From IMG/VR virus record IMGVR_UViG_2690316002_000015: a stretch of DNA of 20,832 nucleotides; one strand, 5' to 3'. This DNA comes from a virus (Duplodnaviria > Heunggongvirae > Uroviricota > Caudoviricetes). Made by a program: the position numbers. Below, in pieces: positions 6,001 to 9,000 of the stretch (its first letter is position 1; each line of letters opens with the position of its first letter).

Positions 6001-9000
6001 GTGTTCTGCCATGCGCTCCTGAAACTCAACATCGTCATCAAACGCACGGATAATGGCTTTTTTGCTGGCCCCGTGGCGTTGCAAATGATCGATGCATAGC
6101 GATTCAAACAGGTGCTGGGGCAGGCCTTTTTCCATGTCGTCTGCCAGTTCTGCCTCTTTCTCTTCACGGGCGATCTGCTGGTAGTGACGCGCCCAGCTCT
6201 GAGCCTCAAGACGATCCTGAATGTAATAAGCGTTCATGGCTGAACTCCTGAAAATGGCTGTGAAAATATCGCCCGCGAAATGCCAGGCTGATTAGGAAAA
6301 CAGGAAATGGGGTTAGTGAATGCTTTTGCTTGATCTCAGTTTCAGCATTAATATCCATTTTTTATAAGCGTCGACGGCTTCACGAAACATCTTTTCATCG
6401 CCAATAAAAGTGGCGATAGTGAATTTAGTCTGGATAGCCATAAGTGTTTGATCCATTCTTTGGGACTCCTGGCTGATTAAGTATGTCGATAAGGCGTTTC
6501 CATCCGTCACGTAATTTACGGGTGATTCGTTCAAGTAAAGATTCGGAAGGGCAGCCAGCAACAGGCCACCCTGCAATGGCATATTGCATGGTGTGCTCCT
6601 TATTTATACATAACGAAAAACGCCTCGAGTGAAGCGTTATTGGTATGCGGTAAAGCCGCACTCAGGCGGCCTTGATAGTCATATCATCTGAATCAAATAT
6701 TCCTGATGTATCGATATCGGTAATTCTTATTCCTTCGCTACCATCCATTGAAGGCCATCCTTCCTGACCATTTCCATCATTCCAGTCGAACTCACACACA
6801 ACACCATATGCATTTAAGTCGCTTGAAATTGCTATAAGCAGAGCATGTTGCGCCAGCATGATTAATACAGCATTTAATACAGAGCCGTGTTTATTGAGTC
6901 GGTATTCAGAGTCTGACCAGAAATTATTAATCTGGTGAAGTTTTTCCTCTGTCATTACGTCATGGTCGATTTCAATTTCTATTGATGCTTTCCAGTCGTA
7001 ATCAATGATGTATTTTTTGATGTTTGACATCTGTTCATATCCTCACAGATAAAAAATCGCCCTCACATTGGAGGGCAAAGAAGATTTCCAATAATCAGAA
7101 CAAGTCGGCTCCTGTTTAGTTACGAGCGACATTGCTCCGTGTATTCACTCGTTGGAATGAATACACAGTGCTTATTCGTACTAATAAAATACCCAATTTT
7201 CTGTTTCTTGGTTGTGTCCAAAGTTATATTCAATATCTGGTGTTGATGTATCAATATTCTTCATACCATCAACAAGAGTTGATACAACAGCCAAATCTTG
7301 TTTGATTCTCATTAAATGGTATTTCTTCCGGCGCAATAAACTTTCAATGGCAAGTTTCTTCGTTGGGAATGCAAAAGATCTTTCTGCATTTTTTGCTACT
7401 TTCTTAATTGCATATCTATTTCTCCTTTGTTTCCATTCCTGTAACCACTGATTTGGTGCTGGTTTAAAATTAACAATCCAATGCGCAGGAACCAACCATG
7501 CATAATGCTCTGTCTGATGAAAAGCTATATATTGAAGTGCGAATATTTTTATCCCATCTTCTTCAACTGTCGCCTGGAATCTCCAGAAAACAGGCATTCC
7601 ATCATGTTCAGTTTCTGATTCAGGAAAAGGTACGCTCCATGATTTTGTCATATCTCACCTCAAATAAGTGGTTTGCTGCCTAATTTCATTTTCTGGCGAC
7701 CAACACAAGTCACCTCGCCGTCAGTTGTTTTGATTTCCGGTAGCCTGCCGCGTAAATGGCTACGTTTGGAAGACATACACCAGTTTCTGGTTGCTTATGT
7801 CCAAACTCATTCGCGTACACAATGGCCGCTCGCTCCAGATTGCGTCTGTATTCTTTCTGTTGCCAGATCACGTCCTGTGCCATGAACTTAATTGGCTTAG
7901 CGTCTTCTATGCGCTCAGGCGTTTCGTGAGTACCTTTAGCCTGAATCTGCGCTCTGCTTAGAGTAGGGCGGTGTAATACTTCTGAACTTATTGCTTCTTC
8001 GCGGGCCAGTACGCCGTTAGCTAATGCCTTTGCCTTTAAACGCTCACGACGACGAGAACGTGAATTGCCTTTGAACTGAGTTCTGCGTGTCATATAGACC
8101 TCCTGATGAACTTTGGTGGTGTGGTAGGTGGGAGACCCATTTCGACCTGTTTCGGCCTACTTCAATTCGGCAATAGTCCCGCAGGCCTCGCCGCTTTACG
8201 TGCGACATATTCCCGTCCATGAACCCTTCACCACACCCCAAAGTTCACTTTGGTTATTGCGCTTTGTCAGCGCCGTAGATTCATATTCGAATCGTTGTAT
8301 ATTTACCGCCCTGGTGAGTAATGCGTCCTGCTGATGGGTGAGCTTTATCGGAATGATAAATTAATGGCAATAGCAAAATGATAAATTCTCTTGGTTTTCA
8401 AATATCGTATTGATTCTTATGGTGTTTTATTTTGTTGTAGGAATTCGACAGGATAAATAAAGAGATTTGAGGGAGATCTGGATTGCGTTGTTTAGCAAGT
8501 TGTATCTATTTATTTTTCAACAAATACAATTGGTTATGTGTTTTTAGGTGTGGGATCGTGAGGCAAAGAAAACCCGGCGCTGAGGCCGGGTTAATGCGTT
8601 AATGCTGGGGAGTGATTTTTTTGTTGTCTGTTGGCTGGGTATTTTGTGGCGGCGCTTGCAAAGTGGAAGGCTGTTGCAAAGGTGCGTGGTCTGACTTTAA
8701 AGCTGATACCAGCCCGGGAATCGCAACTATTACAGCGATAATGACACTAAAAATGGCTAATCGTATAGAAATACCCGACTGAACACCACTAATTGCGGTA
8801 TTAACCCCTGTTATTTGTCCTTGAATTCCTTCGAATCTCCCATTAATTGCTTTTATATCGCCAGCAGCGCTATCCATCTTTCCATCGATCTTGGACGATA
8901 GAGAGCTTATGGCTGCATTAAGTGATGCAAATTGGACATTAACGCTTTCACGAGATAGAGCCATGTCAGCCCTAATGGAAGAAGCAATAGACTCCATCTC

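Follow-up and report, generated by a model that had tools for sequence, protein, structure and literature searches.

Which gene stands between the antiterminator gene N and ea10 in a lambda-like phage genome in which ral and sieB are missing, how is it expressed and what might it do? We addressed these questions for IMG/VR virus record IMGVR_UViG_2690316002_000015 (Duplodnaviria; Heunggongvirae; Uroviricota; Caudoviricetes), a stretch of 20,832 nucleotides that we analysed in full and call the window, in which a 156-amino-acid (aa) open reading frame (ORF) on the minus strand occupies this interval. We find that the ORF is a conserved gene carried as a minimal promoterless cassette in a variable slot of the early-left operon, that it is probably transcribed together with N, and that its basic product possibly serves counter-defence or host takeover early in lytic growth.

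Several features identify the ORF as a working gene (Table 1). It opens with ATG, runs for 156 codons and is preceded by the Shine-Dalgarno sequence GAGGTGAG, a strong ribosome-binding site that shares bases with the TGA stop of a relic N frame described below. At 35.7% GC (26.8% at third codon positions) it is poorer in GC than the whole window (45.6%), N (49.2%) and bet (52.7%). The ratio of nonsynonymous to synonymous substitution rates (dN/dS) was 0.05-0.12 against three E. coli and HK97 variants, with small counts; 40 alignment columns were invariant over 20 homologues with identity down to 55%; and an exhaustive profile search returned 87 representative clusters at 50% identity, mostly proteins of 130-155 aa. 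The close homologues (55-85% identity) are encoded by prophages of Pectobacterium, Brenneria, Rosenbergiella, Cronobacter and Symbiopectobacterium. These comparisons indicate that the ORF is under purifying selection. A non-functional reading frame or decaying remnant would be compatible with the missing known domain, which is its sole support, yet it is at odds with the low dN/dS, the invariant columns and the many clusters, a structure model with a predicted local distance difference test (pLDDT) score of 96 and the strong ribosome-binding site; because the ORF is conserved, we regard this explanation as effectively refuted and its chance as negligible. An earlier note, made from the sequence alone, had placed the ORF at 7181-7651, with this length, between N and ea10, and had described it as AT-rich, free of transmembrane segments and without a recognisable motif. 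The coordinates and composition were borne out, no transmembrane segment was found in the 156-aa product (maximum Kyte-Doolittle 19-residue window 0.56; grand average of hydropathy -0.59), and searches of Pfam, NCBIfam and PADLOC gave no significant match.

Database comparison indicates that the gene is already known and catalogued as a sequence and is no new discovery. Window positions 7000-7800 are identical in DNA (100%) to 933W, Min27, phi24B and several more Shiga toxin (Stx) converting phages of the Stx1 and Stx2 types, in which the ORF is annotated as hypothetical protein L0079 (933W) or vb_24B_11c (phi24B), and its product shares 99.4% protein identity with HK97 gp45. All three are the same gene as the 156-aa ORF, at the same place after N and with no difference that would set them apart. 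The product matches PHROG 1636, annotated "unknown function", from end to end (E 2.7e-112; residues 1-156 on profile positions 1-156 of 156). Carriers comprise essentially all well-known Stx1 and Stx2 converting phages (933W, phi24B, Min27, BP-4795 and phage 86) together with HK97, and also include phi345 and phi367, phages of enterohaemorrhagic E. coli (EHEC). Among complete E. coli genomes the gene is present in 598 of 5426 (~11%), in up to four copies per genome and always annotated as hypothetical. No paper was found in a literature search for L0079, vb_24B_11c, HK97 gp45 or the accession numbers. The window itself is a mosaic, at most 78% of which is covered by any one phage record, and its immunity region is unlike that of 933W.

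The boundaries of the cassette can be read to the base. On the downstream side, window 5901-7171 is 98.8% identical to lambda 32776-34045 over the end of bet, gam, kil, cIII, ea10 and a terminator hairpin, and this homology ends at 7171 (lambda 34045), 10 bp below the stop of the 156-aa ORF and 42 bp below the lambda ral stop. On the upstream side, the 49 bp between the N stop and the GAGGTGAG ribosome-binding site read ...VTCVGRQKMKLGSKPLI followed by a stop in another frame, with clear likeness to the lambda N C-terminus ...TCSGRQKIKGKSIPLI and its stop. In an E. coli prophage locus (L018), an N gene of 108 aa has the stretch at 7660-7713 as its genuine 3' end, with 100% identity; we therefore interpret the stretch as a remnant left by exchange of N alleles and as a favoured recombination junction. 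A programmed frameshift after N, which the alternative-frame peptide might have suggested, was considered and rejected, because the N homologues of the Salmonella phages Oslo and epsilon34 are not followed by this stretch and because another N allele truly ends with it, base for base. Between these limits, the cassette of 488 bp (7172-7659) replaces exactly lambda 34046-35036, which holds ral, orf28 and sieB, and a tblastn search of the whole window found homologues of neither Ral nor SieB. The proposal of the earlier note that the ORF stands in place of the lambda genes thus holds with defined end points.

We compared the surroundings of the gene in 80 E. coli prophage loci whose copy of the protein is identical; these are the best-scoring 80 of 261, redundancy among them is possible, and the counts are indicative. 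Homology to the window mostly ends upstream at 7713, the commonest breakpoint, or at 7667-7683, and downstream at 7181, the ORF stop, or at 7049-7051, just past the terminator, indicating that the minimal shared unit is the ORF with its ribosome-binding site (7181-7667). What lies upstream varies: a 933W-type N in ~24 loci, a 99-aa N allele with its stop codon 9 bp before the ATG in ~15, a Nun-like gene (PHROG 5632) in 12 and a lambda-type N in 5, with extra cassettes encoding an Nmad5 protein (PF18757), a 62-aa Cys-rich protein or a 149-aa PHROG 3054 protein between N and the 156-aa ORF. Downstream variation is similar, with ea10 in ~20 loci, a P22 gp17-like gene (PF17420) in ~9, cIII directly in others, a 322-aa protein with many charged residues in some, and in six loci a 98-aa PHROG 1273 gene that follows after 41-47 bp with no terminator between. 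In other phages the interval between N and cIII is occupied by Ral, SieB, P22 gp17-like proteins, an Nmad5 protein, pentapeptide-repeat proteins and several unknowns. Occupants as varied as the Nmad5, Nun-like and gp17-like genes mark the interval as a multi-cassette hotspot, in agreement with the accessory hotspot proposed in the earlier note, and the 156-aa ORF is a minimal promoterless cassette in this slot between N and cIII or ea10. Individual examples include the gene with the Nmad5 nucleotide-modification domain between N and the ORF (locus L018, 3035-3658), HK022 Nun-like genes upstream (L026, L031 and L099) and P22 gp17-like genes downstream (L038, L035, L059 and L098). Oslo gp47, a 149-aa protein encoded in the same slot, was tried as a relative of the 156-aa protein and rejected as unrelated.

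Two statements of the earlier note, that the ORF is followed by its own intrinsic terminator and that it is expressed under N antitermination, had to be revised. A terminator scan agreed with the proposed hairpin at 7049-7076, finding a stem at 7078-7057 (minus strand) followed by GAUUUUUUAU to about 7047. However, the hairpin, TTGCCCTCCA(A/G)TGTGAGGGCGATTTTTT, sits in the lambda-homologous flank and also occurs at lambda 33931-33952, differing from the window copy by one base; there it stands 135 bp beyond ral and 27 bp ahead of the start codon of ea10. The same hairpin follows gp45 in HK97, ahead of cIII, where it is annotated as a putative terminator, and it is missing in the prophages whose homology stops at 7181, where the next gene begins after 41-47 bp. 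It is thus not the ORF's own; it behaves as a conserved linker joining mosaic segments, and it is probably a member of the lambda tL2 terminator cluster. A second terminator-like hairpin in the window (6619-6638, minus strand) is identical to the lambda hairpin upstream of cIII and coincides with a recurrent mosaic breakpoint (6609-6615 in related loci).

The position of nutL upstream places the 156-aa ORF in the pL operon. A sigma-70 consensus scan of the minus strand from 6500 to 8700 revealed no promoter-like site, although this simple search could miss a weak promoter. The sole terminator-like site between nutL and the ORF end is weak (7791-7779, within the N coding sequence, with a stem of 5 bp) and within chance expectation, so that transcription leftward from nutL would meet its first strong terminator in the linker hairpin below the ORF. 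Folding of the spacer between N and the ORF is no more stable than that of shuffled sequence (z = 0.03), and in about 25 prophage loci the gap between the N stop and the ORF is 9 bp. Because there is neither a promoter nor a convincing terminator between nutL and the ORF, and because the gap is so short in many prophages, the ORF probably lies on the terminator-free primary transcript of N; it is probably co-transcribed with N as an immediate-early gene, with no need for N antitermination, and its expression under such antitermination is therefore doubtful. Without a promoter and a terminator of its own, the gene is not a moron in the strict sense.

The product is an 18.6-kDa protein with an isoelectric point (pI) of 9.07, seven Trp and no Cys, which is predicted to be soluble. 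Its ends are acidic and its centre basic, residues 56-130 holding 17 Lys or Arg against five Asp or Glu. An AlphaFold2 model built from a 67-sequence alignment reached a pLDDT of 96.1 and a predicted template modelling score (pTM) of 0.83, replacing an earlier, poor model from 20 close homologues (pLDDT 59.5). The model consists of a long beta-hairpin (19-30 and 33-46), a third strand (50-55), two short helices, a short strand (83-86), a 33-residue helix (98-130) and an ordered C-terminal tail with the conserved motif NFGHNxETExW. Conservation across the superfamily falls on G33, T47, K87, A101 and a basic stretch on the long helix, R-K-x-x-Q-x-x-H-L-x-R; K87 is near-invariant in the 67-sequence alignment, whose consensus retains the RK..Q..H..R stretch, and members of the close family all share K84, R91, R107, K109, H112 and R115. 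The protein is confidently predicted to adopt an alpha/beta fold without a counterpart among solved structures. A search of a viral structure library returned 12 matches at E <=1e-3, all uncharacterised proteins of diverse phages, among them Erwinia phiEa2809, Achromobacter phiAxp-3, Delftia RG-2014 and Rhizobium and Tenacibaculum phages; some of the phages with structural relatives are presumed to be virulent.

The earlier note had called for structure prediction and profile searches; the first gave the confident model and the second yielded unnamed PHROGs only. PHROG 1636 was matched by 67 of 67 members of the superfamily alignment, none of which (0 of 67) matched a relevant Pfam or NCBIfam family. 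For the 156-aa protein itself, the best Pfam-A score was 12.3 bits against a cutoff of 22.2, NCBIfam gave no match, and PADLOC-DB gave none with E <0.01, the only match being Cas1_II at noise level (E 0.018, 12.4 bits); PDB sequence profiles searched with shallow and deep alignments, like Pfam, NCBIfam and PADLOC, added nothing beyond the unnamed PHROGs. Likeness to Ral was absent by hhalign (probability 0.12%), and tblastn gave no significant match of Ral on the whole window (best E 0.14, elsewhere) or of SieB (best E 0.097). The 156-aa protein is thus a member of PHROG 1636 and lies outside the Ral and SieB families and the acidic DNA mimics.

Distant relatives were placed in context using Vibrio, Pantoea and Pseudomonas phages, Marinobacterium, Pseudomaricurvus and one further prophage, and 13 IMG/VR contigs. 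The family is phage-only and found in early-left operons: distant members mostly lie co-oriented in such an operon, with recombination genes upstream, integrase downstream and small unknown genes around, and in the close relatives from Pectobacterium and Brenneria the gene is immediately upstream of xis-int. Clustering of neighbours over 27 diverse loci revealed no fixed partner gene, the only recurrent neighbours being a RecE/YqaJ exonuclease (7 loci) and integrases (6 and 4 loci), which argues that the 156-aa protein functions on its own. A DNA cytosine or adenine methyltransferase is encoded a few genes away on the same strand in 5 of about 11 annotated contexts (L009, L011, L013, L014 and L020), a pattern that may be chance; we give this proximity little weight because such enzymes are common in early-left operons. 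Apparent domain fusions among the distant matches, a 940-aa protein (P0066) and a 444-aa protein (P0080), were rejected as repeat or coiled-coil artefacts.

How might such a protein act? We propose that leftward transcription from pL on the terminator-free stretch of N would reach the ORF, that translation would start from its own strong ribosome-binding site, and that synthesis of the protein would begin as soon as infection or induction sets in, probably without N antitermination. It would act alone, without a conserved partner gene, and its conserved basic face may bind nucleic acid or an acidic host protein, as its charge and conservation suggest. Its role would be early and lytic, in counter-defence or host takeover and not in prophage-expressed exclusion; counter-defence might, for example, work by protecting phage DNA as it enters the cell or by binding to a sensor or nuclease that is acidic. 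We hold this whole package, an early stand-alone basic binder serving counter-defence or host takeover, to be possible, if somewhat short of an even chance. A specific counter-defence role is more doubtful, and the fullest version, in which the protein is the founding member of a phage-wide immediate-early counter-defence family of unseen fold, made with N and neutralising an E. coli immune system via its basic surface, is slightly more doubtful still. In favour of counter-defence, genes known or annotated for it share the slot between N and cIII, namely lambda Ral, PF17420 GP17 and the Nmad5 nucleotide-modification domain.

Several observations weigh against this proposal. No homology was found to any characterised anti-defence protein, and a published DefenseFinder anti-defence run on EHEC phages reported only methyltransferases, Ral and Gam, though the set includes the carriers phi345 and phi367 (PMC12502783). 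The 156-aa sequence does not appear in the supplements of two large phage accessory-gene screens. Hotspot position is weak evidence because the slot also holds the exclusion gene sieB, what points to nucleic-acid binding is charge and conservation, and Rho-dependent termination between N and the ORF, which is beyond the reach of an intrinsic-terminator scan, is conceivable. The classic early anti-restriction proteins Ocr of T7 and ArdA, moreover, are highly acidic DNA mimics, whereas the 156-aa protein is basic overall and on its conserved face.

The early-left surroundings also lend themselves to a role in DNA metabolism, in which the protein would be a basic DNA-binding helper of recombination or replication (Red, Erf or RecET) with no part in counter-defence. 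The family does occur in operons with recombination genes, including the exonuclease in 7 of the 27 diverse loci and RecT, SSB and RdgC nearby, and a conserved basic face would suit such a helper. Yet the recombination genes lie anywhere from 1 to 5 kb away, the recombinases are unrelated to one another (Red in the window, Erf in HK97 and L018, RecT/YqaJ elsewhere), and in E. coli the cassette shuffles independently beside N and not beside exo and bet, so that we consider this role unlikely. Adjacency to N or Nun in E. coli might instead indicate a regulator, a small modulator of early transcription or of the lysis-lysogeny decision that binds nucleic acid or RNA polymerase as a helper of N or Nun or acts on host transcription. 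The structural scores for such a function are at noise level, however, at least four unrelated N or Nun types accompany the gene, and in Pectobacterium, Brenneria, Marinobacterium and Pseudomonas phages it lies far from N, beside xis and int or unrelated genes. Varied N and Nun types and N-distant positions make a specific partnership with N unlikely, and we rate a regulator as a rather remote prospect.

A prophage-expressed defence, guarding the lysogen by SieB-like superinfection exclusion or abortive infection, would fit the slot, which is that of sieB in lambda and in Salmonella phage Oslo, and prophage hotspots often carry defence genes. It agrees poorly with the product, which has no transmembrane segment, no SieB similarity and no PADLOC match at E <0.01, and with its expression, as the gene has no promoter-like site of its own and lies within the repressed pL operon; structural relatives are, in addition, spread over diverse phages, including those presumed virulent. 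We consider such a defence improbable, the least likely of these alternatives apart from the remnant, and keep an early lytic function in counter-defence or host takeover as our working proposal.

What the present analysis adds to the catalogued gene is the exact boundaries of the cassette, the relic N end and the finding that the terminator is part of the backbone shared with lambda, together with a phage-wide superfamily of the 156-aa protein that has no fixed partner gene. Likely N-independent co-transcription with N and a confident structure prediction without a solved counterpart are likewise new. With its presence in Stx phages, HK97 and ~11% of E. coli genomes, its probable place in the first transcript and no solved structural relative, the gene is a well-defined, readily tested and medically adjacent candidate for anti-defence screening, and no discovery as such. 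Were its role counter-defence or host takeover, the gene would matter for the way in which Stx phages settle in new hosts and would extend the anti-defence repertoire by a new fold and mechanism, and a founding member of such a family would help Stx phages to spread between strains.

Table 1 Features at and around the 156-aa gene in the window
Feature	Position	Strand	Evidence or remark
156-aa protein-coding gene (933W L0079, phi24B vb_24B_11c, HK97 gp45; PHROG 1636)	7181-7651	minus	ORF listing, DNA and protein identity, PHROG, dN/dS
Shine-Dalgarno sequence GAGGTGAG	7654-7661	minus	Read in sequence; spacing to ATG 6 nt
Relic of lambda-type N 3' end, recombination junction	7660-7713	minus	Alternative frame ...VTCVGRQKMKLGSKPLI and stop; no functional part of 933W-type N
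Antiterminator N, 933W/H-19B/HK97 type, directly upstream of the 156-aa ORF	7710-8093	minus	Pfam N_peptide E 2.1e-15; 933W annotation
nutL	8259-8325	minus	98.5% identity to nutL annotated in 933W record AF125520
Intrinsic terminator (8-bp GC-rich stem, 6-nt loop, U-run)	7047-7078	minus	Terminator scan; hairpin energy -12.9 kcal/mol
ea10, downstream neighbour in lambda-like flank	6662-7030	minus	DUF2528 E 2e-47; 99.2% identity to lambda Ea10

Elsewhere in the window, the lambda cIII thermoregulator RNA element was detected at 6544-6602 on the minus strand (Rfam, 88.5 bits). Two minus-strand ORFs, 8599-9219 (206 aa, PHROG 5820) and 9216-9704 (162 aa, PHROG 5893), stand where 933W has L0081 and stk; the 206-aa protein has faint matches to pore-forming MakA/MakE and coiled-coil families and a hydrophobic C-terminal stretch, and the pair may be prophage-expressed accessory genes downstream of the repressor. 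In the nin region, 15688-15889 (plus strand) gave Rfam matches to C4 antisense RNA, its a1 and b1 targets and isrK, and is a P1/P7-type antisense immunity module that presumably controls a downstream antirepressor. In the late-promoter region, downstream of the three tRNA genes at 19108-19356, matches above the Rfam gathering score were obtained for STnc100 (19436-19628, plus strand, 149.9 bits) and for the anti-GcvB small RNA AgvB (19629-19690, minus strand, 96.5 bits).

Among characterised systems, lambda Ral has a similar genetic setting: its gene lies in the same operon and in the slot between N and ea10, is expressed early from pL at a promoter-distal position and has the same terminator hairpin below it. 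Ral differs in being a protein of 66 aa of unrelated sequence. SieB of lambda and P22 is an alternative occupant of the N-proximal slot. It is membrane-associated and prophage-expressed, and the annotations of lambda and Salmonella phage Oslo place it on the opposite strand, in contrast to the 156-aa protein with neither transmembrane segment, SieB similarity nor own promoter. The P22 gp17 family (PF17420 GP17) and Nmad5 (PF18757) resemble the 156-aa gene in being single-gene cassettes beside it with the same modular shuffling; their sequences are unrelated to it, and they either adjoin it or take its place in the slot. The model gave no structural match to Ocr- or ArdA-type proteins, yet these are small, soluble and among the first proteins produced on infection, the expression pattern that we infer for the 156-aa protein. 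By analogy of position and timing, it may thus work in the manner of Ral or Ocr, as an early anti-defence protein.

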